Positions 11,353 through 55,826 of a stretch of 64,000 bases of DNA are shown piece by piece. How positions within the stretch are numbered: the stretch's first letter is position 1; each line of letters begins with the position of its first letter. Made by a program: the position numbers and the translations under genes. The DNA is taken from positions 543,199 through 607,198 of the forward strand of contig JBMOPU010000012.1 in NCBI GenBank assembly GCA_049322955.1. Direction: 5' to 3'. Source of the DNA: Patescibacteria group bacterium. Lineage in GTDB: Bacteria > Patescibacteriota > Microgenomatia > UBA10105 > UBA927. Under the pieces are notes generated by a model that ran no database searches, was not told the DNA's origin, and worked only from the letters and a program-made list of their open reading frames with translations.

Positions 11353-11750
11353 GTATTCATTTCAATAACGGGCGGGAGTGTCGTGCCCTGCGGAATAAAC
11401 CGCAATGACAGGGAGTTGACGCAGTGTCGGGTATTTTTGAGGGTAAAGCGCTCTCCGATAAAGACATGTCCTAAATGTCCGTCACATGTATTACAGCGGA
11501 TTTCCACTCTTCTGCCGTCGGGATCCGGAAGACGCCGTACCGCATCGGGATACGTATCATCAAAGGCAGGCCACCCGCACCCCGCGTCAAACTTCGCCTT
11601 GGCGCTGTATAACGGTGCGTTACAGCGCCTGCATATATACGTGCCCTCCTTAAAAAAAGCGTCGTACTCGCCGCTTCCCGGCGGTTCGGTACCGCGATTG
11701 ACGATGACGGAGGCTTCTTCATCGGTTAAGGGATTGTACGCGGGGGACAT
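11349..11750 (-). CDS. msrB: Peptide-methionine (R)-S-oxide reductase MsrB
   Basis: GTEPPGSGEY, two CxxC pairs (CRRCNAPLY ... CNTCDGHLGHVF), catalytic RHCVNS motif. 3' end overlaps the convergent hydrolase gene by 4 nt. Confidence 0.9.
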   Translation of the reverse strand: MSPAYNPLTDEEASVIVNRGTEPPGSGEYDAFFKEGTYICRRCNAPLYSAKAKFDAGCGWPAFDDTYPDAVRRLPDPDGRRVEIRCNTCDGHLGHVFIGERFTLKNTRHCVNSLSLRFIPQGTTLPPVIEMNT

Positions 11751-11757
11751 GTCGTTA

Positions 11758-12396
11758 TTATACCGTACTTTTTTTCACGATTGCCCGGTTGATGAGAACG
11801 AACCAAAGCAGGACGGGCAGTGCGATTGCCTTCTGAAAAATACCGCGATATTCAAGGAATACCCCCATAAAATAAAACACAAACCACACAATGCTCCCCG
11901 CAAGCGCCGTAAATCCCGCCACAAGGGTCACGGGCGCATACGGGGCAAGATGCTTTTCTTTGCGAAATACCGCCGCCAGCTTGGTGATTCCGAGAGGAGA
12001 GAGTAGGAGAAACAGCATGACCGCACTGATATGGACTAAACCCGTCGGTGTAAGAAGGGTATAGTCAAGCGGGACGTTTTCAATAGGATCGGTGGGAATA
12101 AACGCGGCGATGATAAGAAAAAAACTGCACAATCGGAAGATTATACGGATGACCGCATCTTCCTGCGGTTGTTTCACTAGAAGCCGCGTCAGATGAATAC
12201 CGGTCACATATATGCCCGCGGCAAGTTGGAGAAAGTTTATGCTTTGTATCCATCCGTATCGTTCGATGGCAAGCCGGCTTATCGTGTGATTAAGGTGGTT
12301 ATACCCCGGGGTAATACTCCCCAAAAAGAATACGATGATGACAAAGAGTATCGGGCTGAAACGGGCAAGCCTCATCGGGATCATAGGTGTTCTCAC
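11758..12396 (-). CDS. Polytopic membrane protein (DUF998-like)
   Basis: Six predicted TM helices, 212 aa. Start overlaps the stop of the upstream bactofilin-like gene by 4 nt. Confidence 0.45.
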   Translation of the reverse strand: MRTPMIPMRLARFSPILFVIIVFFLGSITPGYNHLNHTISRLAIERYGWIQSINFLQLAAGIYVTGIHLTRLLVKQPQEDAVIRIIFRLCSFFLIIAAFIPTDPIENVPLDYTLLTPTGLVHISAVMLFLLLSPLGITKLAAVFRKEKHLAPYAPVTLVAGFTALAGSIVWFVFYFMGVFLEYRGIFQKAIALPVLLWFVLINRAIVKKSTV

Positions 12397-13577
12397 ACGA
12401 GGTGTTTCGATCGCATCTGCCGGTACACATCCTGCTTTTCAAACAGAACGGCTCCGGTGCCGATAAGGACAAGAATGCCTTTGGCAAGCCATCCGAGGAT
12501 CGGAATAACGCTTACGATGCCAACAAGAATCATACCCGTCAAAAGTTGCCACGCGTTGTGCACACCTGTTGCGTTAAATCCCCGGAAAACACTTCTTCCG
12601 ACGAAAAGAGCGGCATAAATATGCCCCACGAAACAGAGGAGACCCAACACCGTGAAGAGAAAAATGCCGAGTGGAATACCGACGACCGTGAACAATGATG
12701 TTACCCCAAGGATGGGAAGCCCGATAACCGCCACGACACCGAGCCCGAATGATCCCCAGCCGTTTTTTCGCATCATATTTACCGTTTTTTCACTCAATGC
12801 CGGCATGAGCCACAATATGATAAGCCCGGCAATATACATGGCGACAAATCCCAAGGCAACGAGAATTGCCCCGATGGCGGAAACCGCCCCCACAAATCCC
12901 TTTGCCGTAGACGTTGCCACCTGAGACGCTTTTGCTTCGTCATCTTTTACCTCGTGAAAGATCATTTCTCCGGACAAGGTAACGTTATCCGCAACGACCG
13001 CCTCTTTCTGACTCCAGTATGTTATGTCTCCGGCAATTTTTGTCTTAGGTTGCAGGGCAATAGCTTCAGCGGCTAAGAGCACGTTGCCGCCGATAGTGGC
13101 GTTTGAAGTAAGTGTGCCGACCCCTGCGGTAAGTCCCTTTGCCAACGGACCGTAGAGATCAAGGGTGCCTGCTCCCGCAACCATACTGCCGCCCATTTTT
13201 GCCTGTGGGCTTACCATCACCGATCCCGCGCCGATCGTCACATTGCCGCCGACCGTATTCGTGAACGTGACCGTACCTCCGAGCGCGCGGACGTCATTTT
13301 TGACGGGACCTTCAATGCGGACCGTTCCGCCGGCGACCAACAAATCTCCGTTTATCGTGCCGTCAACGGTCACGACACCTCCCGCGACATACGCATCGCC
13401 GTTAACGGTTCCCGACAGATGTACCGAATCACCGGCGGCAAAATAATCGCCGTCGACGGTTTGCGCCTTTTCGAGAATGACATTGACGGGGGCATCTTTT
13501 CCCTTGGCGAGGGTCACCGGGACAAAAAATGACAAGGAAAGCAACATGAGGACAAATAGTTTCGCCAATAATTTCAT
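12393..13577 (-). CDS. Signal-peptide protein with bactofilin-like (polymer-forming cytoskeletal / beta-helix) repeats fused to a C-terminal multi-pass membrane domain
   Basis: Start set at MKLLAKLFVLMLLSLSFFVPVTLA (signal peptide). The ORF-track start 150 nt upstream lacks an RBS in good position. Repeats GDAYVAGGVVTVDGTINGDLLVAGGTVRIEG are typical of the bactofilin/DUF583 beta-helix. The last ~170 aa contain 4-5 TM helices. Confidence 0.5.
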   Translation of the reverse strand: MKLLAKLFVLMLLSLSFFVPVTLAKGKDAPVNVILEKAQTVDGDYFAAGDSVHLSGTVNGDAYVAGGVVTVDGTINGDLLVAGGTVRIEGPVKNDVRALGGTVTFTNTVGGNVTIGAGSVMVSPQAKMGGSMVAGAGTLDLYGPLAKGLTAGVGTLTSNATIGGNVLLAAEAIALQPKTKIAGDITYWSQKEAVVADNVTLSGEMIFHEVKDDEAKASQVATSTAKGFVGAVSAIGAILVALGFVAMYIAGLIILWLMPALSEKTVNMMRKNGWGSFGLGVVAVIGLPILGVTSLFTVVGIPLGIFLFTVLGLLCFVGHIYAALFVGRSVFRGFNATGVHNAWQLLTGMILVGIVSVIPILGWLAKGILVLIGTGAVLFEKQDVYRQMRSKHLV

Positions 13578-13879
13578 AGAATACATCTCCCTCTGAAAAC
13601 ACAATACATCCGATAGAGGTGCATGTAAATACGCACTGGGAGTTACGGGGTATAGCCGCAGGGAAGGGCGGGGGGAGTGCCGGAAGGATTCCCGTGGCGT
13701 GCCCATGAGCCGTTCACACAGACCCATGTATCTTCATTGCCGCCGATAAGGAATCGAACAACCAAACCTACAAATGCCGTGATAAGGATGATGCCTGCCG
13801 CCTTGATCCATCCGGTTCCCATAGCCGTATTATAAACCCGCAGGACAAGCGAAGCGGATATTTTGATACAATCGCATGC

Positions 13880-16350: not shown

Positions 16351-17676
16351 TTATTTGACCCCGAGGATACTTACCACACTCACGACGATGATGATTGTCA
16401 TGGCTACCGCAAACCCGCGGAAAAACGCAGATGATCCGTTGGTTTTGGCATAAAAGATTTTCATTCCCAGGTTGACGGTGTTAGCGACGGCAATTGCCCC
16501 TATCGCGTTACTATAACTTAACGATTTGCCCGCCATGTCGGCAATCGTTATCACCACGGCATCCATACCGGCCACCGCCCCGATGGCGCTTGTGAGGATG
16601 ACGCCGCTTTCGCCGAATAGCTGGCGGGCAAGCTGTGACCCTGTGCGGATAAGACTGAAGATGACGGCAAATTTGAGTGCGGATCGGAGGGAAAAGATAC
16701 TCGTTGCGGCTTTGGTTTCAGTCGTCGTATGCGTCGAACGGAAGTGAAGAACCGTACTCACGATGATTCCGGTTATTAGAAGCGCCATAAAAAATAGCGA
16801 TCCGCTCGTAAAGAGCGCCGCATTGATGGGGAGTACTAACAGCATGATCTGGACAAAACTTGCGGTATTGGATAAAACCGCCGCGGTGACAAGCGCCGTT
16901 GCATCCGCCATTTTCTTGCTCCGCTGGGCAAGGGCAAGGGTAGCCGCAGTGGAGGATATAAATCCGCCGCTAATTGCCGCCATGATCCAGCCCTTTTTGC
17001 CGCCTAATAGTTTTTGGAGTCCGTAGCCCAAGAGATCAATACCCGTGATAAGCGTGACGACGAGCCACAATCGGTACGGGTTGATGAGTTCGATGGATGC
17101 AAAGCGATCAAGCGGTGCGTTGTAAGCAGACGCAAGTTGGTTCACCAAGGCGAGGTCACCCACGCGTATCCAAGTGTTGGGGAGGAACGGCAGGATCACG
17201 AGCGCGATGATGCCATATAAGACAAACGCATTGGTCTCAAACATATGAAGCGAGCGCACCACGGATTTGATTTCCTGTTTGCGGGAGAGGAGAAACGTGA
17301 TGACAAAGGTCGCGGCGAAAACAAGGGCGATCGGGAATTGGGGGAAGAAAAGGAGCGCCCCCATAAAGAATACGGCGATAGCGCCGATTTCCGAGGTGGG
17401 ACCGTGATCGCGGGTGCGAATGCTCGACATAATATAGTAAGAAACAAGCATACTGCCCGTGAGTGCGGCGACTACCACACCGAGCGGATTGCCTGCTACG
17501 GTGAGATAGCCGCAGATGCCACCCAAAAATGAGAGCAGTGCATAGGAGCGAAGCCCCATGGAGGTTTCGCGTTTCACCCGTGATCCTTTTTCATCGTGCT
17601 GGTATTCGCGCTCAAGCCCCACGATGGCGCCCACGAGGAAGCTCAACCCAAACCGTAACAGAAGATCATTATTCAT
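16351..17676 (-). CDS. MgtC/SapB-family membrane protein with DUF4010-like C-terminal membrane domain
   Basis: N-terminus FLVGAIVGLEREYQHDEKGS is the MgtC signature (GxEREx). About 10 TM helices, 441 aa. Confidence 0.6.
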   Translation of the reverse strand: MNNDLLLRFGLSFLVGAIVGLEREYQHDEKGSRVKRETSMGLRSYALLSFLGGICGYLTVAGNPLGVVVAALTGSMLVSYYIMSSIRTRDHGPTSEIGAIAVFFMGALLFFPQFPIALVFAATFVITFLLSRKQEIKSVVRSLHMFETNAFVLYGIIALVILPFLPNTWIRVGDLALVNQLASAYNAPLDRFASIELINPYRLWLVVTLITGIDLLGYGLQKLLGGKKGWIMAAISGGFISSTAATLALAQRSKKMADATALVTAAVLSNTASFVQIMLLVLPINAALFTSGSLFFMALLITGIIVSTVLHFRSTHTTTETKAATSIFSLRSALKFAVIFSLIRTGSQLARQLFGESGVILTSAIGAVAGMDAVVITIADMAGKSLSYSNAIGAIAVANTVNLGMKIFYAKTNGSSAFFRGFAVAMTIIIVVSVVSILGVK

Positions 17677-17744
17677 AGCCTATAGCTATTATAGCGGAAG
17701 CGGGGTGTAGGGTAAATAGGGCGTCAGGGAGGGATGAATAGTTG

Positions 17745-18989
17745 TTACTGTGTAACCCACTTTTCCAGCGCCCGTTGAAGCTCGGGGCTGTCTTTGGTTT
17801 CTGAAAGGGGAGTGCCCGTAAGTGTTGCCTTCAATGATTGGACGATCGCCCGTGCTCCTGCGGGAGTGCCGTCGGGGTGCCCGTGAATGCCGCCGCCGAA
17901 GTTCATGAGTAAATCCTTGCCGAGGATGGATACAAGATCGGGGATGTGTCCGGGGTGCAGTCCGCCCGATGCGGTGGGGAGGGTAGTTTTCAAGCCATAC
18001 CATTCACTTCTTAGGAAGTTATTGATCGTCACCACTTCTTCTTTCCCGCCTTCCATTTTGCCGACGACCGTTCCGGTGTGGAACGAGTCGATACCCGCAA
18101 GGCGCGCCAGTTTGGCGATGACGAGCATCGAGATACCGAATATTTTGGATCGGGTAAATGCCGCGTGCATGGCGCGGTGCCCATGGATCATCAGTCCGTA
18201 GTTCCTATTCCGAATTCCCTGGGTCGCGGCAAAGCCCGCAGTCAGGACATCGATCATCAGACAGTTAGCGCCACTGTCGCGCACGTAGTTGGCGCGTTTC
18301 ATCATTTCTTCGTAACTTGCCGTGATGTTAAACGCATGGATTTTTGCCTTGCCGATTTCAAGGTAATTCTTTTCTTTCATCCTGCGGGTCACTTCATCCA
18401 CCCGGGTATAGAAATTATCAAACGTCATGTTGGCGAGGTTTTCGTCATCTTTGACGAGGTTGACCCCTCCATCCCACACCTCCATACACGCTTCGGCGTG
18501 GCGGACGCTGGTGAGTCCCAGCTTGGGCTTGATGATCGAGCCGGTGAGCGGGCCATCGTGTACTCCCGTGAGGTTGCGGATTCCTTCGATGCCCAATGCA
18601 GGACCGGGGAACGATTTGACGAATATCTCGGGAAATTCCAAATCTTCAAGCCGGAGCCCCACGATTTCTTTAAGCCCGAAGACGTTTCCCGTGATAGAAG
18701 AGAGGAGTTGGGGGATACTTCCCGCCTCGAATAAATCGAGTGGATACGCGACGACAATTCTTCCCGTCTTTTCATCCATTTCGATGACTTTGGCATGCAA
18801 TTTGTCCCAGATTTCCTTTTCTTCAAGCCCGATGTCCGTCCACGTGCCGACGGAGGATTCCGCCGCCACTCCACCTGCCGTTTTATCAAACGGTTCGCCT
18901 TCCACTTTGAGGGTAAAGGTAGCCAAAATATGCTTGGTCTTGTCGACTTTTTCGTTGAGTGCCAGATAATGGATGTACCGATTTGCCAT
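17745..18989 (-). CDS. rbcL: Ribulose-1,5-bisphosphate carboxylase/oxygenase large subunit, form III-like (archaeal/CPR type)
   Basis: Active-site motifs IKPKLGLTS, GGVNLVKDDEN (carbamylated Lys), HRAMHAAFTR, GLHPGHIP ... NFGGGIHGHPDG; 414 aa. Immediately downstream of an e2b2-family isomerase. Confidence 0.88.
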   Translation of the reverse strand: MANRYIHYLALNEKVDKTKHILATFTLKVEGEPFDKTAGGVAAESSVGTWTDIGLEEKEIWDKLHAKVIEMDEKTGRIVVAYPLDLFEAGSIPQLLSSITGNVFGLKEIVGLRLEDLEFPEIFVKSFPGPALGIEGIRNLTGVHDGPLTGSIIKPKLGLTSVRHAEACMEVWDGGVNLVKDDENLANMTFDNFYTRVDEVTRRMKEKNYLEIGKAKIHAFNITASYEEMMKRANYVRDSGANCLMIDVLTAGFAATQGIRNRNYGLMIHGHRAMHAAFTRSKIFGISMLVIAKLARLAGIDSFHTGTVVGKMEGGKEEVVTINNFLRSEWYGLKTTLPTASGGLHPGHIPDLVSILGKDLLMNFGGGIHGHPDGTPAGARAIVQSLKATLTGTPLSETKDSPELQRALEKWVTQ

Positions 18990-18996
18990 AGAAATA

Positions 18997-19911
18997 TTAT
19001 AGAGAGATAAACGGATAATTCATACGGGCGGTTTCGACAATTTGTTCCCCGCGAAGCAATCCCGCTTCGGTAATGATCGTGATGTCTTTATCATACGGTG
19101 TAAAGTCAAAGGCGGGGGCAAAGATCGAAAGCTTTTCGGGCGCATCGTTCCATATTTCCGACGGATTGCGGGTTTCGATAAGCGACTGGTCAAACGGGCG
19201 AGGATCATATTTTAACAACGTGGAGAAGCAATACACGGGAATATTTCGCGCCCGTGCCGCAAGTACGATGGCAAGACTGCCGATTTTGTTGACAAACCCC
19301 GTGTCGGTCAGTAAATCCGCCCCGATAAATACCGCCGAAATATTCCGCTTCGGATCGGCAAGCACCGAGGCGGCGGCGCTATCGACGATCAGTGTCACGG
19401 GATCGATACCCCCGTTTATGAGTTCCCGCACCGTGAGTCTTCCTTGAAACAGAGGGCGCGTTTCGGTGGCGATAACCGAAAGCTTCTTTCCGTTGTGGTG
19501 TGCCTGCAAAAAAGCGTTGGTGACGGTGGATGCATGGCAATGGGTCAGGTATGTTGCGCCATCTTGCATGAGGGCGGCACCATGGGCGGCAATTTTATGT
19601 TTTGCGTCACGGATAAAGGTAGTGTAGGTCGCGATTTTTCCGAGTACTGCCGCGGCGGTTTTGGGAGCATCGGCAAACATACTCCGCACCGCATTTTGAG
19701 CCAACGGCTCGGTGGGACGCGCGTATGCCAGCGCTTCTGCCATCTCTTTCAGCTTCGTTACGGGTGTTTCGGGGGCATTGCGTACCGTGAGGGTAAGGGT
19801 ATCAAGCACGGCAAGTGCGACATTAGTCGCTCCCTGAATGTTTAAGGCTTTGATATCCGAAACCACCTGTTCATGGGACAGCATATGTCCATTGTAGAAA
19901 GAACGGTTCAC
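18997..19911 (-). CDS. Ribose-1,5-bisphosphate isomerase (eIF-2B alpha/beta/delta-like, e2b2 family)
   Basis: IF-2B family fold (GATNVALAVLD, THCHAST with candidate catalytic Cys, GADLLTDTG with Asp). Ends 8 nt upstream of rbcL. Start is GTG at 19911 or in-frame ATG at 19884. Confidence 0.75.
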   Translation of the reverse strand: MNRSFYNGHMLSHEQVVSDIKALNIQGATNVALAVLDTLTLTVRNAPETPVTKLKEMAEALAYARPTEPLAQNAVRSMFADAPKTAAAVLGKIATYTTFIRDAKHKIAAHGAALMQDGATYLTHCHASTVTNAFLQAHHNGKKLSVIATETRPLFQGRLTVRELINGGIDPVTLIVDSAAASVLADPKRNISAVFIGADLLTDTGFVNKIGSLAIVLAARARNIPVYCFSTLLKYDPRPFDQSLIETRNPSEIWNDAPEKLSIFAPAFDFTPYDKDITIITEAGLLRGEQIVETARMNYPFISL

Positions 19912-19923
19912 GAAAACAATGCG

Positions 19924-20229
19924 TTATCGGGTGCGGGTGAGGTGGATAACGGTACCCGTTTCCGCATCGGTTAGTGTATCGGTGGCATCATTGGCGGGCA
20001 AATTTGCAGTGTCGATAGGTGCCCCTACCTGTTCAAATTTCAGATACGCCCGTCCGGCGCCCTTCGCCCCCTCACTAATCATGTGGGAAGGAGCCCAGAG
20101 TATCTTCCGCCAAATCCCCGGTTGTATTTGGAGTCGGGCGGATATAATTCCCCCCGATTCCTTGGGGTCGGGGATGGTAAATTCATCGCGTCCATCGGGT
20201 GGCCGCTCTATGTAGCCTTTGACCGTCAT
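19924..20229 (-). CDS. Small hypothetical protein, first gene of the isomerase-RuBisCO operon
   Basis: Start set at MTVKGYIERPPDGRDEF (ATG); two further in-frame ATGs exist at 20244 and 20295. Stop lies 13 nt upstream of the isomerase start. No recognisable domain. Confidence 0.35.
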   Translation of the reverse strand: MTVKGYIERPPDGRDEFTIPDPKESGGIISARLQIQPGIWRKILWAPSHMISEGAKGAGRAYLKFEQVGAPIDTANLPANDATDTLTDAETGTVIHLTRTR

Positions 20230-20329
20230 AACGGGATAAATCATACAAAAAAAACCGGCTTTTTTCAAGTTATAGGGCATGCACGTTCCGCGCAAATGTA
20301 ACGAGCATTATGATGCGGTATGATATACT

Positions 20330-20665
20330 TTGGGTATGGTGAAAGAGAAACATGTCTATGCGTGCGCGGAAGGAAGGATTCGCGGTCGGGAACTGGCCGA
20401 TCTGGCAAACGCGACGAAAGTAATTTCCGCCCGTTCCTTTCCCGGAGGCAAAAGACGCCTGGTAGAGCTCGATAAAAGTGTGCTTCAGGCGACAATAGCC
20501 GAGGATGAACTGGTGATATTAATTACGGAACCGCAAACGAGTTGGCGGGAAGATTACGAGTTATCCGAGCGGGCAAAAGTGTTGCTTGGGAACGCCGGCA
20601 GAAAGTGGCGAAGTGATACACACGCCAATCTCATCGTCGAATTGGAGTTACGAATGCTTCAGTAG
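20330..20665 (+). CDS. Hypothetical protein
   Basis: Complete 111-aa ORF in an otherwise gene-free gap; no recognisable motif. Confidence 0.3.
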   Translation: MGMVKEKHVYACAEGRIRGRELADLANATKVISARSFPGGKRRLVELDKSVLQATIAEDELVILITEPQTSWREDYELSERAKVLLGNAGRKWRSDTHANLIVELELRMLQ

Positions 20666-20824: not shown

Positions 20825-21142
20825 TTATTCTTCCGGAAAATTGAGGACGCCGGTAATAAATAAATCAATGCTGTGAAGCAACTGAATCTGTGTTTCCCTT
20901 GCCCCCTTGAGGGGATTTTTTCCTCTATTTTCCTGACGTAGCTCGCGGATTTGTCGTTGATCCATGGAGAGCACTGTGGTCACAATTTCTTCAAATTCTG
21001 CTCTTGAATGACCCCAGGTATCAGCCCATGCTATTTTCTCGGGAGTCAGGAAGTGTGTTCGAAGACGATCACGGTTCGCCTGCATAAAGCGTAGTTCCTC
21101 GTCTGCGCTGATTCGTCGTGGCATGCGGTGAGATTCACTCAT
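20825..21142 (-). CDS. Hypothetical protein
   Basis: Complete 105-aa ORF convergent with the previous one. Its last three codons form one arm of a 9-bp inverted repeat. Confidence 0.3.
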   Translation of the reverse strand: MSESHRMPRRISADEELRFMQANRDRLRTHFLTPEKIAWADTWGHSRAEFEEIVTTVLSMDQRQIRELRQENRGKNPLKGARETQIQLLHSIDLFITGVLNFPEE

Positions 21143-28258: not shown

Positions 28259-29179
28259 TTATCTTTTGCGAAATCTTATTCCTTTCGATTCCGCCACCAT
28301 GACACCGATGGCGATAATGATGCCGCCCAAGACATAAGAGGGGGTAATAGTTTCCTTAAGCCATACGACGGCAAGGATAGCCGCCCACAACGGCTGGAGA
28401 TAAACGTAGAGTGCCGATTCGGACACTTCAATGGTTTTGACCGCGATGTTCCGTATGGTATAGGCGATGGTGCCCGAAAACAGCGCCATATACAGCACTC
28501 CGAGATGCGCTTCAAACGGTGCGGTAAAAAGCGTGGTAAAAACAAGATCTGGTGATTTGCGGAGAAACAGTATCGGTAAAAAGAGGGCAAATCCTACGAT
28601 AAACTGTGTTTGGGCGACCAGGGAGGGAGCAATACCTTTTTTCATCGCTTCTTTGCTCAATAACGCGCCGATGATATCCACGATCACTGCAAGAAGCATA
28701 AGTCCGTTGCCTTCAAGTTTTCCCAGAGAGTCGCTATGTCCGTTGAGGATGAGGGGACCAATCACGGTTAAGAGAGTTCCCGTTATGGCGATGGCGATGC
28801 CGAGTTTCTCATTGAAGCGTATCTTGTCGCGGAAAAAAAGCACACCGCCCAAGACAAGAAACAAGGGACCTGCGGCGGTAATAAGACTCCCCGAGAGAGC
28901 CGTCGTCTTGTCGAGCGCTTCAAAAAATAAAAAGAGGGATAGCGGAGCGGATACAAATCCCGTGAGCAGGGTGAACCAGATATGCGACGGTTTTTTGGGG
29001 AATTTGACGCGGGAAAGGGAAAGCGCGGGGAACGCGATAAGCGTGCTCAGGAAAAAACGATACGTCAGAAATAACCAGGGATCAAACCACGTCAGCGTAT
29101 GTTTGACGACAGGGCTCGCGGCTCCCCACATCAGTGAAACTAAAAGAAGATACAACGCGGCGGTAGTCCGTGTATTCAT
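28259..29179 (-). CDS. EamA/DMT-superfamily transporter
   Basis: Ten TM helices in two EamA-like repeats. Start set at MNTRTTAALYLLLVSLMWGAASPV. Confidence 0.7.
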   Translation of the reverse strand: MNTRTTAALYLLLVSLMWGAASPVVKHTLTWFDPWLFLTYRFFLSTLIAFPALSLSRVKFPKKPSHIWFTLLTGFVSAPLSLFLFFEALDKTTALSGSLITAAGPLFLVLGGVLFFRDKIRFNEKLGIAIAITGTLLTVIGPLILNGHSDSLGKLEGNGLMLLAVIVDIIGALLSKEAMKKGIAPSLVAQTQFIVGFALFLPILFLRKSPDLVFTTLFTAPFEAHLGVLYMALFSGTIAYTIRNIAVKTIEVSESALYVYLQPLWAAILAVVWLKETITPSYVLGGIIIAIGVMVAESKGIRFRKR

Positions 29180-29201
29180 GGGCAGTATATGTACAATAAA
29201 A

Positions 29202-30413
29202 TCAGTCGATACCGAACAGGGACGGAAGATCGGCAAGCGATATTTCCTTTTGTTCTTTTGTGCGCATATTTTTCATCATTACGGTATTTTTTCCCTGTTC
29301 TTCGCTTCCGGCGATGACGACAAACGGAATGGCGTTTTTATCCGCATATTTCAACTGTTTTTCCAGTTTGTCGGCGGTAGGATAAAGGTCAGCGCCAACC
29401 TGCTTTTCGCGCAATACCTTGGCGATCCGTTGGGAATAGGCGCGCTCATTTTCGGAAAATACCGTAACCAGGACTTGCCCTGCCGTGGTGAGATTCGGAA
29501 CGAGACCCATGATTTCGGCAGCCTCCAGCGTTCGGTCAAAGCCGACGGCAAACCCGGTGCCCCCGATATCTCGCCCCGCGAATTTTGCGAGTAACCCGTC
29601 GTACCGCTCGCCGCCCAACACCGACATGTTATATCCGGCATCGGGAATTTCCACTTCCCATATGGGTCCCATGGAATATGAAAACGAGCGCGCAATCGTG
29701 GGATCGAATGCGTACCAATCCTCGGAAAAGCCGTAATTTTTAAGGTAGGAGAGAATAAACGAAAGTTCCTCGTTCGGTTTCAGATTTTTTACATACAAGA
29801 GGTATTCCTTGGCTTTATCAAGCGTTATCCCTTTTTTCTCCATTTCCGCCAGCACGCCGTCGTCGCCGATTTTTTTTATTTTGTCGATGGAAACGATTGC
29901 CTCATACGGCATGTCCTTAAACAGAGCGCGTGAGTTCATGCGAACCAACGCGTTTTTAAAGCCCAACTGCCGATAGATATCCAACGAAAGTGCTATTACT
30001 TCCGCATCCGCGTCGGGCGTTTTTATGCCGAAGATATCGGCATCCGCCTGGGTAAATTCGCGATATCTGCCTTTTTGCGGCTTTTCCGCCCGGAATGCTG
30101 GCTGTATCTGATACCGCTTGAAGGGGAAAGCAAGTTGATTCTGATACTGTGCAATTACCCTGCACGTCGGGACGGTTTGATCGTAGCGGAGTGCTACATC
30201 ACGTTCTCCCTGATCCTTGAACTTAAAAAACAGTTTTTCGTCTTCGCCGATGGCTCCCACAAATATCTCAAGCGGCTCAAGCGTCGGTGTTTCGAGCGGG
30301 GCAAATCCCCAGGAAGTAAAAATTCCGGAAAGTTTGTCGCGTAACCATTTACGTTTTGCGGCCTCGGCGGGCAAGAAATCCCGAAATCCCTTTAGCGGTA
30401 AAATTGTGTTCAT
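29202..30413 (-). CDS. hisS: Histidyl-tRNA synthetase
   Basis: Class II motifs: motif 1-2 region (LRYDQTVPTCR, FKRYQIQPAFRAEKPQKGRYREFTQADADIFG), motif 3 (GGERYDGL), C-terminal anticodon-binding domain. Confidence 0.9.
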   Translation of the reverse strand: MNTILPLKGFRDFLPAEAAKRKWLRDKLSGIFTSWGFAPLETPTLEPLEIFVGAIGEDEKLFFKFKDQGERDVALRYDQTVPTCRVIAQYQNQLAFPFKRYQIQPAFRAEKPQKGRYREFTQADADIFGIKTPDADAEVIALSLDIYRQLGFKNALVRMNSRALFKDMPYEAIVSIDKIKKIGDDGVLAEMEKKGITLDKAKEYLLYVKNLKPNEELSFILSYLKNYGFSEDWYAFDPTIARSFSYSMGPIWEVEIPDAGYNMSVLGGERYDGLLAKFAGRDIGGTGFAVGFDRTLEAAEIMGLVPNLTTAGQVLVTVFSENERAYSQRIAKVLREKQVGADLYPTADKLEKQLKYADKNAIPFVVIAGSEEQGKNTVMMKNMRTKEQKEISLADLPSLFGID

Positions 30414-32755: not shown

Positions 32756-33559
32756 TTACGGAGTCGGTGTGGCGGTGGGTCGGGGAGTTGATCGCGGCGT
32801 CGCAGAAGCGGAGGCGACGGGCGTAACGAGCGACGTCGGTGTTGCCGCGGCTCCGGTGATATTGCCCAGATCGAGAATGCGACTGGCACTGTAACTGTTT
32901 TCCTTTTTTGCGACGGGAGTTGCCGTAATGTGGACGGTATCTCCCACGGCGATTTTCGAAAAACCGCCCTTCGCAAGTCCCCCCGCTTTGGTCCACATGG
33001 TTGTTTTGGTCGCTTTTTCAATGTCTACCGTGAGGATTCTTCCTTCGCTGGTGTTTATCGTCAGGACGAAATCTTCAGTATCGACATCGACGACAATGCC
33101 GGTGAGTCGGGTAATCGTGCTGGTACTTTCGATGAAAATATATTGGGCCTTCAAAAGATCCAGCGTTTCGTCATAAGTGCCGAACACCGTTACGACGTCT
33201 TTCGGCTCGATTTTATCGACGGCTAGCGGCGTCCGTTTGCCGGCAATCATTTGGGTGACCGTCACGTCATCGGTAAGCTCTATTTTTATATCCTTTGTCT
33301 TGGTTTCGATAGTTGCCGACGTGACTGACACGGATTTTACGGTACCGCTCATTGCCCGTTTGACGACGGTACGAAGCTCGGCCACTTTTGTCGCAAGCCT
33401 TGCCTTGAGTTCTTCCATCTGTGCACTGCCGGAAGCGGTTGCACCGGTGGGTCTGGGGGTGGCGGCCTGAGTGCTTTCCTGTGCCGTGACGAAGGAAAAC
33501 GGTGAGGCAAGGAATAAAATGATCACGAGTGCGATGGACATGGTCGTATAGCGTTTCAT
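32756..33559 (-). CDS. Secreted hypothetical protein (signal peptide, coiled-coil segment, beta-rich domain, Pro/Thr-rich C-terminal tail)
   Basis: Start set at MKRYTTMSIALVIILFLASPFSFVTAQ. C-terminus TPRSTPRPTATPTP. Confidence 0.45.
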   Translation of the reverse strand: MKRYTTMSIALVIILFLASPFSFVTAQESTQAATPRPTGATASGSAQMEELKARLATKVAELRTVVKRAMSGTVKSVSVTSATIETKTKDIKIELTDDVTVTQMIAGKRTPLAVDKIEPKDVVTVFGTYDETLDLLKAQYIFIESTSTITRLTGIVVDVDTEDFVLTINTSEGRILTVDIEKATKTTMWTKAGGLAKGGFSKIAVGDTVHITATPVAKKENSYSASRILDLGNITGAAATPTSLVTPVASASATPRSTPRPTATPTP

Positions 33560-33563
33560 AAGA

Positions 33564-34016
33564 TTAAAAATCTTCCGGCGTATAATATACCGTAACGGTT
33601 TGTACCTGTACTTTGTTCCCCGCATGACTGGTTACGATAATCTCGTTCTTTCCTTCGGAGAGGCTGATTTTTCCGGCATACGATCCCTGTGCATTGGCTA
33701 CCGCTACCGTCTCGGTACCGTCGGTTTCAATGACGACAATAGATTCCGGAGCAACGGAGCCCGAAACCAGTGTTTCATTCTTGGGCTCGATCGCTTCAGG
33801 GAGAGGACTTTGAATGGTAAGACCTTCACCCGGTTTCGGGGTGGGGGTGGGTTTCGGATTATTTTTCTGCGTAAATCTTGCGGTAAGCGCTGAAAGATTC
33901 GGCAGTTTTATCGAGGGGAAATTTTTGATAAGTGACGGACCCAGAAATACCGCGGCGGCAATAATAAGGCCGACACCGAATCCTATTATAGTTGCAAGTA
34001 ACGCATCTTTATTCAT
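33564..34016 (-). CDS. Membrane-anchored hypothetical protein with Pro-rich linker and Ig-like beta domain
   Basis: N-terminal TM helix (ATIIGFGVGLIIAAAVFLG), linker PKPTPTPKPGEG, beta-rich C-terminal domain. Stop lies 4 nt from the next gene. Confidence 0.4.
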   Translation of the reverse strand: MNKDALLATIIGFGVGLIIAAAVFLGPSLIKNFPSIKLPNLSALTARFTQKNNPKPTPTPKPGEGLTIQSPLPEAIEPKNETLVSGSVAPESIVVIETDGTETVAVANAQGSYAGKISLSEGKNEIIVTSHAGNKVQVQTVTVYYTPEDF

Positions 34017-36513: not shown

Positions 36514-36598
36514 GCCGAGGTGGCGGAATGGCAGACGCTCAGGTCTCAAAAACCTGTGAGCATAATAGCTCGTGGAGGTTCGACTCCTCTCCTCGGCA
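36514..36598 (+). tRNA. tRNA-Leu (anticodon CAA), class II with long variable arm
   Basis: Acceptor stem GCCGAGG/CCTCGGC, anticodon stem CAGGT/ACCTG with loop CUCAAAA (U33-CAA-A37), long variable arm, T-arm GGAGG-TTCGACT-CCTCT, discriminator A. CCA is not encoded. Confidence 0.85.
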
Positions 36599-36643
36599 CC
36601 CGTTAGAGACAAACGCTGTGTGAGTCACAGAAAGGAGTGCTTC

Positions 36644-37600
36644 ATGAAACTCAAAGATCTCTATTCTTTGGCACTACAAATGGGTATCGATGCCGATCCG
36701 CGTGGAGCTTCCGGAGTCAAAAAAATTCTGGAGCGACGCAAAAAAGAATACGAAGATCTTTCTCCTTCGAAGAAAGCGGAATACGATCTCGAGGATTTAA
36801 CCAATCCCTATACGGACTCCCGTATTTATCTGGGTGACCCTGAACAGGAAGTGGATTCCCTCATGGCGGGCATTGATATCAACGCGGCAGAAGTTCTTCT
36901 TGCGGACCGGTTAAATCAAAAAGGGGAGAGCATTGATCTATTGCTTACCCATCACCCGGAAGGAGCGGCGTTGGCCTCTCTCCATGAAGTGATGGAGGTG
37001 CAGGCGGACATTTGGGCAAAATACGGGGTTCCCATTAATATCGCCGAAGGGGTCATGCGCGACCGGATCGGTGAGGTGCAACGTCGGTTTTCGCCGATCA
37101 ATCACACGGAAGCAATTGATGCCGCAAGGTTGTTAGGACTGTCCTTCATGGGTATGCATACGGTCACGGACAATCTCGTACATCGCTATATGGAAGAGTT
37201 ATTTACCAAAAATAATCCAGAAACGGTCGGCGATATTCTTGAGCTCCTCAAAAAAGAGCCCGAATATCGGGAGGCGATGAAAGGAAAGGCGGGCCCCGTT
37301 ATTTTTGCGGGAGACCCGAGAAACCGAGCCGGGAAAATCGCGCCGATCGAATTTACCGGCGGCACCGAACCTTCCCATATCGTCTACGAAAAGCTTGCAA
37401 TGGCGGGCGTGGGCACCGTTATCGGGATGCATGCGGGGGAAGAGCATCGGAAAGAGGCGGTGAAACACCACATTAACTTAGTGATTGCGGGGCATATGAG
37501 TTCCGATAGTTTGGGGATGAACCTGCTCCTTGATGCGATAGAAAAACGAGGAGTGAAAATTCTTCCCTGCTCGGGGCTTATCCGGGTGCAACGGCACTAA
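36644..37600 (+). CDS. NIF3/DUF34-family metal-binding protein (GTP cyclohydrolase 1 type 2 homologue)
   Basis: Conserved LLLTHHP and metal-binding His/Glu pattern. Start set at the ATG preceded by AAAGGAG; the ORF-track start overlaps the tRNA. Confidence 0.7.
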   Translation: MKLKDLYSLALQMGIDADPRGASGVKKILERRKKEYEDLSPSKKAEYDLEDLTNPYTDSRIYLGDPEQEVDSLMAGIDINAAEVLLADRLNQKGESIDLLLTHHPEGAALASLHEVMEVQADIWAKYGVPINIAEGVMRDRIGEVQRRFSPINHTEAIDAARLLGLSFMGMHTVTDNLVHRYMEELFTKNNPETVGDILELLKKEPEYREAMKGKAGPVIFAGDPRNRAGKIAPIEFTGGTEPSHIVYEKLAMAGVGTVIGMHAGEEHRKEAVKHHINLVIAGHMSSDSLGMNLLLDAIEKRGVKILPCSGLIRVQRH

Positions 37601-52518: not shown

Positions 52519-53256
52519 CTACTGGATCTCGTAGCTGAGGCTCACGTTGACCGAAAGCTCCGAGGTGCCCGGTTCCACTTCTGTGGGGGCTCCTCCGCCG
52601 GACATCGGCAGAGCTTTTTCTGCGGTATCATACATCAACGGCCTTGGGTATGAACCGTTTCCTTCACTGTAATTGATGACTCTCCCGAGTTTAAAGCCGG
52701 CGGCACGGGCCGCGGCTTCCGCTTTTGCCTTTGCATCACTAACCGCCGCTTCTCGCGCCTGATTTTCCGCCTTTGTTTTATCATCGACGTCAAAACTCAC
52801 CCCTCCCACCTCGTTTGCTCCCTCGCGGGTCGCGCCGTCGATCACACTGTTTATTGAATCGATTTTTCTCACCTTCACCGAAAGCTGGGAGCTTGCCTGA
52901 TAGCCGGTAACCCGTTGGGTACCTGATGAATAATCATAAGTCGGCGAGATATGATAATAACTCGTTTTTATATCTTTGGCATCCACGCCGAGTTTTTTGA
53001 TTGCCGCACTTACGGCGTTCATCTTGGTATTTAACTCATCCTGCACTTTGGTGACTGACGAACCTTGTGCGGTGACGCCGAGCGATACGACGGCAACATC
53101 GGGAATGAGCGTTACTTTTCCCTCACCGCTGACGGTAAAGGTATCTGTTTTTGTCGTCGTTACGCTGTTAATCGAAAAAGGCAACGGTCCCGCGAGTTTC
53201 GTATAGGCAAACAGCATAATAAAGAAGAGTACGATTGCACCTGAAATATCTTTCAT
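52519..53256 (-). CDS. SIMPL-domain (DUF541, BP26/OMP28-like) protein, membrane-anchored
   Basis: Start at the ATG preceded by AAAGGAGGGAAT; it overlaps the folD stop (ATATGA). N-terminal TM helix, SIMPL-like beta-alpha core, Gly-rich segment SGGGAPTEVEPG. Confidence 0.6.
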   Translation of the reverse strand: MKDISGAIVLFFIMLFAYTKLAGPLPFSINSVTTTKTDTFTVSGEGKVTLIPDVAVVSLGVTAQGSSVTKVQDELNTKMNAVSAAIKKLGVDAKDIKTSYYHISPTYDYSSGTQRVTGYQASSQLSVKVRKIDSINSVIDGATREGANEVGGVSFDVDDKTKAENQAREAAVSDAKAKAEAAARAAGFKLGRVINYSEGNGSYPRPLMYDTAEKALPMSGGGAPTEVEPGTSELSVNVSLSYEIQ

Positions 53257-54122
53257 ATATTCCCTCCTTTTTGTATAGTACATGCTTTGACAAGATTTTT
53301 CATGAGACAGGCGACATTAATAGGACCCACACCTCCCGGCGTCGGGGTATAGTATGACGCGACATCGGCTATCGCCGCTTCGTCGTAATCACCGTTAAGC
53401 TTTCCTTCACTATCCCGCCATATGCCGACGCTGATAAGCGTCGCTCCTTGTCGGATCGCGGACGGGACGATGACATCCCGTTTTCCGACGCAGGAAATAA
53501 TGATATCGGAAGCGGCGGTGACGGCGGAAGGATTCGGAGTTTGTGAATGGATTATAGACGTCGCACAATTATGCTTTGCGAAATAACGGGAGATAGGTGC
53601 TCCCGCAGTCTCCCCCCTGCCGATAATGGCTATTTTTTGGGAGCGTAGCCATTGCCACAACGAATCTTCGGTATGAGGTGCACTCGCACCCTCCTGCGGA
53701 AGAGACCGCAGTATCTCCCCTATCGCAAGCGCGACGGGTACTTCAAACGGACTATCGGAAAGAAATCCGTCAACATCTTTTTCTTTACGGATTTTTTGTA
53801 AGACGTCGGCAACCCCTCCCACTTCCTCAGGGATCGGTCGTTGCACGATAAGGCCGTGGATCAAGTGATCCTTATTAAACCGATTGATCAGATTGTAGAG
53901 TCCGCCTGAAGTGAGTGACGGCGGTTGGTGTTCGAGAACGAGTCGTGCCCCTATTCGTTCTGCGGCTTTTTGTTTCTGCTTGATGTAGGCGAGACTTGCC
54001 GGATTGTCTCCGATCAAGATGACCGCAAGGGTAGGATCGATCCCCTGTTCCTTCAGTGACGCGACATCATCCGAAAGTCGTGTTAAGAGGGATTCAGCGA
54101 TAAATTTTCCGTCGATACGCAT
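53253..54122 (-). CDS. folD: Bifunctional 5,10-methylene-tetrahydrofolate dehydrogenase / methenyl-THF cyclohydrolase
   Basis: MRIDGKFIAESL start aligns with canonical FolD N-termini. Conserved YIKQKQKAAERIG, PEEV ... KDVDG, Rossmann GRGETAGAPI. Confidence 0.9.
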   Translation of the reverse strand: MRIDGKFIAESLLTRLSDDVASLKEQGIDPTLAVILIGDNPASLAYIKQKQKAAERIGARLVLEHQPPSLTSGGLYNLINRFNKDHLIHGLIVQRPIPEEVGGVADVLQKIRKEKDVDGFLSDSPFEVPVALAIGEILRSLPQEGASAPHTEDSLWQWLRSQKIAIIGRGETAGAPISRYFAKHNCATSIIHSQTPNPSAVTAASDIIISCVGKRDVIVPSAIRQGATLISVGIWRDSEGKLNGDYDEAAIADVASYYTPTPGGVGPINVACLMKNLVKACTIQKGGNI

Positions 54123-55082: not shown

Positions 55083-55826
55083 ATGGAAAACAAATCAACC
55101 AGTGTCGCGATTATTGTCAGTTCCCTACTTTTTGTCACGCTTATCGGTATCGGTGGTATGTTCCTTCCTTCATGGGGCAAATTTGAGCTTACGCCGACAA
55201 AGACCGTGACGGTTGTCGGCGAAGCGAAATCTCAGGAAAAAAGTCAGATTGCGATATTTTCCGCGGGGGTAAATGCCTTTAACGATGACAAGAATACGGC
55301 AGTCAATGAGGTGAATAAAAAAGTCGAAGCGATCATTACCGCCGTCAAAGAATTCGGAGTCCCCGCTTCCGACATCAAGACACAGAGCCTCAACATCTAT
55401 CAGAACCAGGAACAATATTATGATGCCGACGGGCGTCAGCGGTATCGAGCGGGACAGTGGAATGTAAGCAACACCGTGGAAATAAAACTCAAGGATGTGG
55501 ATCGTGCGGGTACGCTTGCGGGGGTGTTGACCAAGACCGGTGCCAATAACGTGTACGGACCGAACTTTACCTTCGATGATACCAGCGAACAGGCAACGGC
55601 GCTTCTCGATGCCGCATACAAGAATGCGGAAGCCAAAGCGATGAAGGTCGCCCAGAGTACGGGGAAGAAGCTTGGTAGTGTGGTCAGTGTTTCTGAGGCA
55701 GGTGCCGCGTCGCAAGTGATGCCGCTGTATCGCATGGAAGGCGGCGGTGGCGGCGGCGGTGGGGCCGTCGAACCGGGAAGCGGTACGGTAAGTAAAAGCG
55801 TGATCGTCACTTTCGAACTTAAATAA
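55083..55826 (+). CDS. SIMPL-domain (DUF541) protein, second paralogue, with C-terminal poly-Gly tract
   Basis: Same architecture as 52519..53256 (TM anchor plus SIMPL core). Gly8 run (MEGGGGGGGGAVEPGSG) encoded by a GGC/GGT repeat at 55741-55768. Confidence 0.6.
   Translation: MENKSTSVAIIVSSLLFVTLIGIGGMFLPSWGKFELTPTKTVTVVGEAKSQEKSQIAIFSAGVNAFNDDKNTAVNEVNKKVEAIITAVKEFGVPASDIKTQSLNIYQNQEQYYDADGRQRYRAGQWNVSNTVEIKLKDVDRAGTLAGVLTKTGANNVYGPNFTFDDTSEQATALLDAAYKNAEAKAMKVAQSTGKKLGSVVSVSEAGAASQVMPLYRMEGGGGGGGGAVEPGSGTVSKSVIVTFELK

Follow-up and report, generated by a model that had tools for sequence, protein, structure and literature searches.

In the AMP/pentose-bisphosphate pathway of Thermococcus kodakarensis, an AMP phosphorylase and the ribose-1,5-bisphosphate (R15P) isomerase TK0185 are combined with a form III-b ribulose-1,5-bisphosphate (RuBP) carboxylase/oxygenase (RuBisCO) (PMC6389311, PMC12628685). 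The enzymes known as form III-like are defined by an insertion of ~8 to 11 amino acids (aa) (up to 24) between helix 6 and strand 7 (PMC5113843, PMC6389311), and some Gottesmanbacteria genomes carry such an enzyme (PMC5113843). The same work used complementation of a RuBisCO-deletion Rhodobacter strain to test a CPR enzyme (PMC5113843). Form III-c RuBisCO is without such an insertion, is ~50% identical to form III-b, and forms a clade distinct from form III-b with III-b-like catalytic residues; it is associated with e2b2 and deoA and is known from Gottesmanbacteria, Kuenenbacteria, and Dojkabacteria, being particularly abundant in Gottesmanbacteria (PMC6389311). All three genes are present in ~91% of Gottesmanbacteria genomes, and some carry PRK (PMC6389311). 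Here we analyze a 64,000-nucleotide (nt) stretch of contig JBMOPU010000012.1 (assembly GCA_049322955.1; the whole stretch is referred to as the window), whose host is a member of Candidatus Gottesmanbacteria in the Candidate Phyla Radiation (CPR; Patescibacteria). It encodes, in this order, a small open reading frame (ORF), an e2b2-family isomerase gene, and a RuBisCO large-subunit gene, rbcL (Table 1). We consider it likely that this locus is the published two-gene salvage module, led by a lineage-restricted small ORF that is not a core enzyme of the pathway.

Judged from its sequence, the RbcL protein is a bona fide RuBisCO of form III and not a form IV RuBisCO-like protein (RLP). It matches the Pfam families RuBisCO_large (E value of 9.9e-79; 265 bits against a cutoff of 30.1) and RuBisCO_large_N (5.1e-31; 108 bits against a cutoff of 20.7). 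Its top NCBIfam model is TIGR03326, the type III equivalog, at 462.9 bits, which is below the cutoff of 497.45, and it passes the broader subfamily model NF003252 (450 bits versus 438). The RLP models for MtnW and OiaX give 205 to 249 bits, with MtnW at 249 and 215 bits against cutoffs of 409 and 514. The best matches in the PDB are all form III-b enzymes, namely those of Pyrococcus horikoshii (2cwx; E value of 2e-104), 6hun, and T. kodakarensis (1geh). RbcL shares 44% identity with 2cwx (402 aligned positions) and 44 to 53% with the proteins of DPANN and archaeal loci. The active-site residues that we scored are, in spinach numbering, E60, N123, K175, K177, K201, D203, E204, H294, R295, H298, H327, K334, S379 to G381, and G403-G404. 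The motifs of the window protein are intact: the E of ESSVGTW, the N of GNVFG, K154-P-K156, K180-D-D182-E183 (with the activator lysine K180 and the Mg ligands D182 and E183), H271-R-x-x-H275 (HRAMH), H304 (FHTGT), K311 (VGKMEG), S341-G-G, and G365-G-G. Both motifs quoted in the initial annotation of this stretch were located, KPKLGL at residues 154 to 159 and GGVNLVKDDEN at residues 174 to 184, and the catalytic and substrate-binding motifs are invariant across the clade. A list of catalytic and substrate-binding residues of RuBisCO is used in the published CPR survey as well (PMC6389311).

Comparison with five sister genomes gives an rbcL nonsynonymous divergence of 0.03 to 0.05 against a synonymous divergence (pS) of ~0.6, which indicates very strong purifying selection on RbcL. 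The synonymous sites are as diverged as those of the neighboring genes, which rules out a recent lateral transfer of rbcL as the cause of the 93 to 96% protein identity. VGKMEG and ASGG are separated by 31 residues, a spacing that most of the other retrieved loci share, and the 2cwx alignment is ungapped where the loop 6-strand 7 insertion would lie. Since this insertion is missing, the enzyme is not form III-like, the label originally given to it, but corresponds to the description of form III-c, which it fits in taxon, in ~50% identity to form III-b, and in lacking the insertion. This placement is based on the published description and not on a tree with labeled references. Eight archaeal loci (L035, L038, L040, L041, L044, L045, L047, and L048) have 43 to 45 residues between the same two motifs, which is 12 to 14 extra, at the place where form III-like enzymes are reported to have their insertion.

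The carbamylation-site motif of this protein, GGVNLVKDDE, had been described as atypical in the residues that flank the activator lysine. The variant is real, but only part of it is unusual. Form III enzymes normally have Leu where form I has Phe before the activator lysine, since the same motif is GGIDLLKDDEN in P. horikoshii and GGIDLVKDDEN in 6hun. The sole unusual change is Asn177 for Asp, three residues before the activator lysine (window positions 18457 to 18459). Residue 177 is Asn in the window and in loci L002, L014 to L018, L024, and L025, and His in L019 to L022; it is Asp in L023, L026, and L027 and in every non-Gottesmanbacteria sequence of the RbcL alignment (loci L014 to L048). 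The other active-site motifs are identical among the Asn, His, and Asp variants. Position 177 presumably lies outside the catalytic and binding residues that are usually scored, and we found nothing useful in the literature on the role of spinach Asp198. On sequence grounds, Asn177 appears to be a tolerated, clade-specific polymorphism and not a sign of lost activity. It is extremely unlikely that this RuBisCO homologue is a noncarboxylating RLP or has been inactivated by the Asp-to-Asn change next to the carbamylation site. Although the score is under the type III equivalog cutoff and Asn177 stands where forms I to III carry Asp, the residues E, N, KPK, K-D-D-E, H-R-x-x-H, H, K, S-G-G, and G-G-G are all kept, RbcL is under extreme purifying selection, and Asn, His, and Asp alternate among close relatives with otherwise identical active sites. 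The RLP models also remain far lower than the form III model at 463 bits, and the fall into form IV that the initial annotation had allowed for is not what we find. This series of Asp, Asn, and His in otherwise near-identical enzymes is natural material for testing how the position affects activation.

When the RbcL protein was searched against one genome per GTDB species, 35 loci were retrieved, 14 of which are from Candidatus Gottesmanbacteria metagenome-assembled genomes (MAGs) with RbcL proteins of 66 to 96% identity. In all 14, e2b2 is directly upstream of rbcL, and where the flanks are recognizable the pair sits between ychF-rpsF-ssb and yggU, a ferric-reductase-like gene, and dus. Because of this constant adjacency and the same chromosomal position, we regard e2b2-rbcL as a stable, inherited pair in this group. 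The claim that, in a CPR genome, a bona fide RuBisCO is coupled to the e2b2 isomerase known from the archaeal-type AMP/nucleoside shunt is thus upheld. The module itself is not new: it repeats the Gottesmanbacteria form III-c locus already published, and an RbcL of 96% identity is already present in public MAGs. Five of the loci (L014, L017, L021, L023, and L027) are titled "uncultured Gammaproteobacteria bacterium," yet they have the Gottesmanbacteria gene order and RbcL proteins of 67 to 96% identity, and these titles are evidently wrong.

The e2b2 product matches Pfam IF-2B (E value of 7.2e-51; 173.5 bits), and among solved structures it is closest to the R15P isomerases 5yfj and 3a11, by a narrow margin over the methylthioribose-1-phosphate isomerases (MtnA). 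Its THC(125)H and GAD(199) motifs have aligned counterparts in 5yfj; C125 and D199 would be, as in TK0185, the catalytic Cys and Asp. Neither TIGR00511, the R15P isomerase equivalog that sets these enzymes apart from MtnA (154 bits; cutoff, 314), nor TIGR00524 (160 bits; cutoff, 186) is passed. Based on the family, the conserved residues, the constant adjacency to rbcL, and PDB matches slightly better than those to MtnA, the protein is probably an R15P isomerase. The window e2b2 is only 49 to 51% identical to the e2b2 of sister genomes (in the range L015 to L024) in which RbcL is 92 to 96%, ychF 89%, and dus 68 to 72% identical. Among those sister genomes e2b2 is conserved as well as dus or better, and the distance of the window e2b2 from them does not rise with genome distance. 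The window type of e2b2 is common only to L002 and L014 (91 to 98%) and L015 (64%). From these comparisons, the isomerase gene looks like an in situ replacement or an old allelic split followed by fast evolution. An isomerase of ~50% identity beside an RbcL conserved at 92 to 96% qualifies the published view, in which e2b2 is vertically inherited and RuBisCO is the gene that moves. The idea that the small ORF and the divergent e2b2 came in together as one cassette is ruled out by L015, which has this e2b2 type without the small ORF, and by L005 and L011, which have the small ORF with the common e2b2 type.

The archaeal AMP/pentose-bisphosphate salvage route has a CPR version, and e2b2 and rbcL would together be its conserved core of two genes. 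As predicted from the protein families, the isomerase would convert R15P to RuBP, and the form III-c RuBisCO would carboxylate RuBP to two molecules of 3-phosphoglycerate, which would enter lower glycolysis. The AMP phosphorylase that supplies the substrate would be encoded outside the 64 kb. Clear deoA homologues lie downstream of rbcL in 11 CPR/DPANN loci, and a profile was built from these 11 genes; an Escherichia coli DeoA query served only as a lead to them. The profile detects nothing among all window ORFs of at least 50 aa (best E value, 3.1), nor, for the 14 Gottesmanbacteria loci, does it detect a deoA at a distance of up to 8 kb from rbcL. Pfam finds no thymidine/AMP phosphorylase, nucleoside phosphorylase, or sugar-kinase domain in the 40 window ORFs of at least 200 aa, and no Glycos_transf_3 or PRK in those 40 plus five shorter ORFs that adjoin the operon. 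The initial annotation was therefore right that the window has no AMP phosphorylase. Most Gottesmanbacteria carry a divergent deoA that is ~80 N-terminal residues short (PMC6389311). Since this has been reported and all 14 loci are alike, the absence of deoA beside rbcL is typical and not an anomaly. Given the published surveys, the AMP phosphorylase of this host probably sits elsewhere in the genome as a divergent deoA.

The first cistron of the operon belongs to a small family of its own. HMMER searches of 1.84 billion representative proteins yielded eight real clusters of 72 to 109 aa at 40 to 86% identity, seven of which align end to end and one of which is a 72-aa fragment. Four further matches to long repeat proteins (P0009 and P0011 to P0013) are compositional or repeat artifacts, as judged from three sequences inspected. 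A word-indexed search of 5.8 billion proteins with the sequence and with the family profile returned only close relatives and known family members, and one more locus was found in JGI metagenomes (5-sequence alignment). As first reported, the small ORF is without recognizable motifs: it has no match in Pfam, NCBIfam, PADLOC, or PHROGs. It also bears no signature of a chaperone, kinase, or phosphatase, which were the identities that had been suggested for it. Its dN/dS ratio is 0.14 against a relative of 92% identity and 0.11 against one of 86%, and on this evidence the small ORF is a real gene under purifying selection. AlphaFold2, with a nine-sequence input, gives a model with a pLDDT of 89.9 and a pTM of 0.80 that has eight β-strands and no helix, and the N terminus does not resemble a signal peptide. 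The product is modeled as a folded, cytoplasmic, 11-kDa β-sandwich protein. Residues W45, H49, G59, K64, G69, L77, L86, D88, and R99 are invariant in the family, and the motifs PDP, WAPxHM, GRxYLK, TLTD, and HLTR recur. A Foldseek comparison of the model with all PDB chains gave no match with an E value of ≤0.001 among the best 50, so that in these searches the small ORF has no confident relative in sequence or fold.

The family occurs in several genomic contexts. In the window and in L002, L014, and L049 (88 to 99% identity), the order is o105, o111 (divergent), small ORF, e2b2, and rbcL. An ABC-F ATPase gene, the small ORF, and an IF-2B gene (58-nt gap) are found in L004 to L008 (48%), and L011 (45%) has a response regulator gene, the small ORF, an opposite-strand 172-aa ORF, and an IF-2B gene. 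In L001 and L050 (86 to 87%; two independent assemblies), ychF and o111 are as in the window, and a convergent 764-aa gene is at the place of e2b2-rbcL. L009 and L010 (50%) have malic enzyme, small ORF, ychF, rpsF, ssb, and rpsR, and the neighbors in L003, L012, and L013 are unrelated. Synteny of the small ORF is accordingly kept in some relatives. The initial annotation had asked whether it is co-conserved in CPR genomes with RuBisCO; by the family hidden Markov model (HMM), the small ORF is present in only 1 of the 14 Gottesmanbacteria e2b2-rbcL loci (L014) and absent from the other 13. The ychF-e2b2 interval is a hot spot of variation that contains o105, o111, the small ORF, an ABC-F ATPase gene, or nothing, depending on the genome. 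The listing of upstream genes is readable for ten of the 14 loci; the gene directly before e2b2 is the ABC-F gene in L015, L016, and L024, o105 in L017, and ychF in L018. L015 has o105 too, and the orientation of o105 is the same as that of e2b2 in every case. The divergent ORF o111 is ruled out as a family-wide conserved partner, because L003 has an unrelated ORF at the divergent upstream position. Two distant family members have a small gene of regulator type before the small ORF on the same strand: one for a CopG-like ribbon-helix-helix protein, 58 nt upstream, in L012 (101-733), and one for a receiver-domain protein in L011 (218-919).

The most likely role of the small ORF, we conclude, is that of a lineage-specific accessory and not of a core component of the shunt; our best guess is a noncatalytic module, serving in binding or as an adaptor, which the shunt can do without and which is its first cistron here by chance. 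Several observations weigh against this conclusion. The small ORF adjoins an IF-2B gene in 3 of 8 lineages (the window group, L004 to L008, and L011), and these three lineages are only 45 to 48% identical in the small ORF, have unlike upstream flanks, and include both e2b2 types, so that adjacency to IF-2B is commoner than expected for a random position. The contigs on which the small ORF lacks a neighboring e2b2 are short, and rbcL and e2b2 could lie elsewhere in those genomes. A dedicated role in the shunt is nevertheless doubtful. The proposal that the small ORF is a shunt component finds little support: it recurs beside IF-2B genes but is missing from nearly all the e2b2-rbcL loci and is kept elsewhere without an adjacent e2b2. 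We consider it unlikely that the small ORF is a genuine shunt accessory that binds as a small subunit to the isomerase or RuBisCO or regulates one of them, and that was recruited in some Gottesmanbacteria and lost in others. Its place as first cistron, 12 nt from e2b2 and behind the only good promoter-like site, is consistent with such a role, as are its position next to IF-2B genes despite differing upstream genes (o111 in the window, ABC-F in L004, and a response regulator in L011) and its pairing with both the divergent (window) and the common (L005 and L011) types of e2b2. The conserved polar residues H49, K64, D88, and R99 and the mostly conserved R60 could form a ligand- or partner-binding site. 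However, its absence from 13 of the 14 loci, purifying selection (dN/dS of 0.11) that persists in a lineage without adjacent e2b2-rbcL, and L011, in which the opposite-strand ORF and 622 nt separate the small ORF from e2b2, speak against an accessory of this pathway. Nor is there any correlation of the small ORF with the Asn/His/Asp variant of RbcL or with the e2b2 type. The adjacency may simply be inherited, because all of the variation falls in one inherited, rearrangement-prone ychF-e2b2 interval at a shared chromosomal site.

More specific identities for the small ORF can be weighed in the same way. It is unlikely to be an unrecognized partner of the CPR form III RuBisCO/R15P isomerase module, for example an adaptor by which the isomerase or the N-truncated deoA product is tethered or regulated, recruited in a few lineages together with an in situ replacement of the isomerase gene. 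A divergent FHA-type phosphopeptide-binding module that ties the operon to Ser/Thr-kinase signaling is very unlikely. The FHA-type β-sandwiches of the EssC N-terminal pseudo-FHA domain (5fwh) and CT664 (3gqs) are counted among the nearest known counterparts, but the ordered FHA signature G-R, S-x-x-H, N-G is not present in the small ORF. Archaeal and CPR AMP phosphorylases carry an extra, β-rich N-terminal domain, which in the archaeal enzyme is ~80 aa in size. Because the Gottesmanbacteria deoA product is reported to be short by ~80 N-terminal residues and the archaeal and CPR enzymes carry such a domain, we also tested the possibility that the small ORF is this domain in detached form. The size (101 aa versus the ~80-aa deletion [PMC6389311]), the all-β fold, and the location in the shunt operon agree with that possibility. 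In contrast, hhalign gives a probability of 0.05 against the N-terminal domains of 11 CPR/DPANN AMP phosphorylases, no AMP phosphorylase is among the best 50 Foldseek matches in the PDB, and most Gottesmanbacteria loci are without the small ORF, while the truncation of deoA is said to be general. Based on the profile-profile and Foldseek comparisons, we rejected the detached-domain identity, which is highly improbable.

With respect to transcription, a single promoter directly before the small ORF most likely drives the small ORF, e2b2, and rbcL. The TTGAAA/TATGAT site listed in Table 1 is the only good σ70-like site upstream of the operon, although such sites are no more numerous in the region than chance predicts. 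Both hexamers, the T-rich (T-run) spacer, and the start context CCCGTTATG are kept in 5 relatives, down to the lineage of 86% protein identity. Since only 10 nt lie between the end of the -10 element and the ATG of the small ORF, its mRNA would be nearly leaderless. No Shine-Dalgarno sequence is visible at the small ORF or at the downstream MgtC-family gene, and at these genes the -10 hexamers are 10 to 11 nt before the ATG codons. This pattern suggests leaderless or near-leaderless mRNAs in the host organism. The promoter-like site before the MgtC-family gene suggests that the three-gene unit ends after rbcL. Judging from spacing and consensus matches, the three cistrons most likely share one nearly leaderless transcript, and the short gaps between them suggest translational coupling. 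A direct repeat, ATCATA-N4-ATCATA, is present at about positions 20307 to 20326, between the small ORF and o111, inside the block AGTATATCATACYGYATCAT; save for two C/T positions, this block is invariant in 5 relatives, including the 86% lineage. The repeat could be an operator or the o111 promoter.

The coordinates of the locus are given in Table 1. An ORF listing of the region from 14 to 24 kb, with Pfam on the second and third genes, bore out the three-gene layout of the initial annotation, and the lengths given for RbcL (414 aa) and for the first cistron (~100 aa; 101 aa found) are correct. The tight packing also stands, but the quoted gaps of 8 and 13 nt are each off by one: we measured 7 nt from the e2b2 stop to the rbcL ATG and 12 nt from the small ORF stop to e2b2. 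The latter gap is 39 nt if e2b2 begins at an in-frame ATG at position 19884, 9 codons after the GTG, which is where gene callers begin it on a 98% identical contig. The MTVKG start of the small ORF is backed by the full-length alignment to 7 homologous clusters.

Table 1. Genes and promoter-like sites of the e2b2-rbcL locus (window positions)
Feature	Position	Strand	Remarks
Small ORF (first cistron)	19924-20229	-	101 aa; MTVKGY start at 20229; orphan; 11 kDa, pI 6.1
e2b2, isomerase (second cistron)	18997-19911	-	304 aa from GTG; IF-2B/e2b2 family
rbcL, RuBisCO large subunit (third cistron)	17745-18989	-	414 aa; form III, fits the III-c type
MgtC/DUF4010 membrane protein gene (downstream neighbor)	16351-17676	-	Context; outside the shunt
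o111	20330-20665	+	Divergent orphan ORF, 109-111 aa; accompanies the small ORF with or without e2b2-rbcL
o105	20825-21142	-	Orphan ORF, 105 aa; co-oriented with the operon; patchy in the ychF-e2b2 interval
σ70-like promoter, putative	20240-20268	-	TTGAAA, 17 nt, TATGAT; 10/12 consensus matches
Promoter-like site before the MgtC-family gene	17688-17716	-	TTTACC, 17 nt, TATAAT; 11 nt before ATG

The MgtC-family gene is kept downstream of rbcL only in L014, L016, and L024, and o111 has no match in Pfam, NCBIfam, PADLOC, or PHROGs. An Rfam scan of the window found a single tRNA and no riboswitch near the operon. Four other long ORFs of the window have no Pfam match: 12393-13727 (- strand, 444 aa), 36572-37600 (+ strand, 342 aa), 11383-12006 (+ strand, 207 aa), and 32756-33625 (- strand, 289 aa). 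A 375-aa ORF at 28467-29594 (+ strand) overlaps an EamA transporter gene on the opposite strand and is probably spurious. Two SIMPL/DUF541 paralogues, at 52519-53283 (- strand) and 55083-55826 (+ strand), flank folD-like and EamA transporter genes.

What this locus adds to the described systems is new but minor: an orphan leading cistron, an Asn/His/Asp polymorphism by the activator lysine, and a displaced isomerase. The small ORF represents a confidently folded orphan family that is found in a handful of Gottesmanbacteria lineages and recurs by the isomerase gene; should its product bind an enzyme of the shunt, this would be the first accessory factor known for a form III RuBisCO pathway in CPR bacteria. 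Compared with the T. kodakarensis pathway, the R15P isomerase and RuBisCO families are the same, the catalytic residues are kept, and the archaeal enzymes are the best solved relatives. The differences are the bacterial host, an isomerase that scores far below the equivalog cutoff, no AMP phosphorylase within 64 kb, Asn for Asp three residues before the activator lysine, and the extra orphan cistron. The form III-like RuBisCO of CPR/DPANN organisms (Wrighton et al. 2016, PMC5113843) likewise has a CPR host, a nucleoside salvage context, and an affinity to form III, but it has the insertion between helix 6 and strand 7 that the window enzyme is without. The closest counterparts are the CPR form III-c/e2b2 loci (Jaffe et al. 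2019, PMC6389311), with which the window shares the host phylum, an RbcL of ~44 to 50% identity to form III-b, complete catalytic residues, the lack of a form III-like insertion, an e2b2 immediately upstream, and a deoA that is not adjacent. It differs from them in the small leading cistron, none being described in that work, and in its unusually divergent e2b2, which is 49 to 51% identical to that of sisters whose RbcL is 92 to 96% identical.

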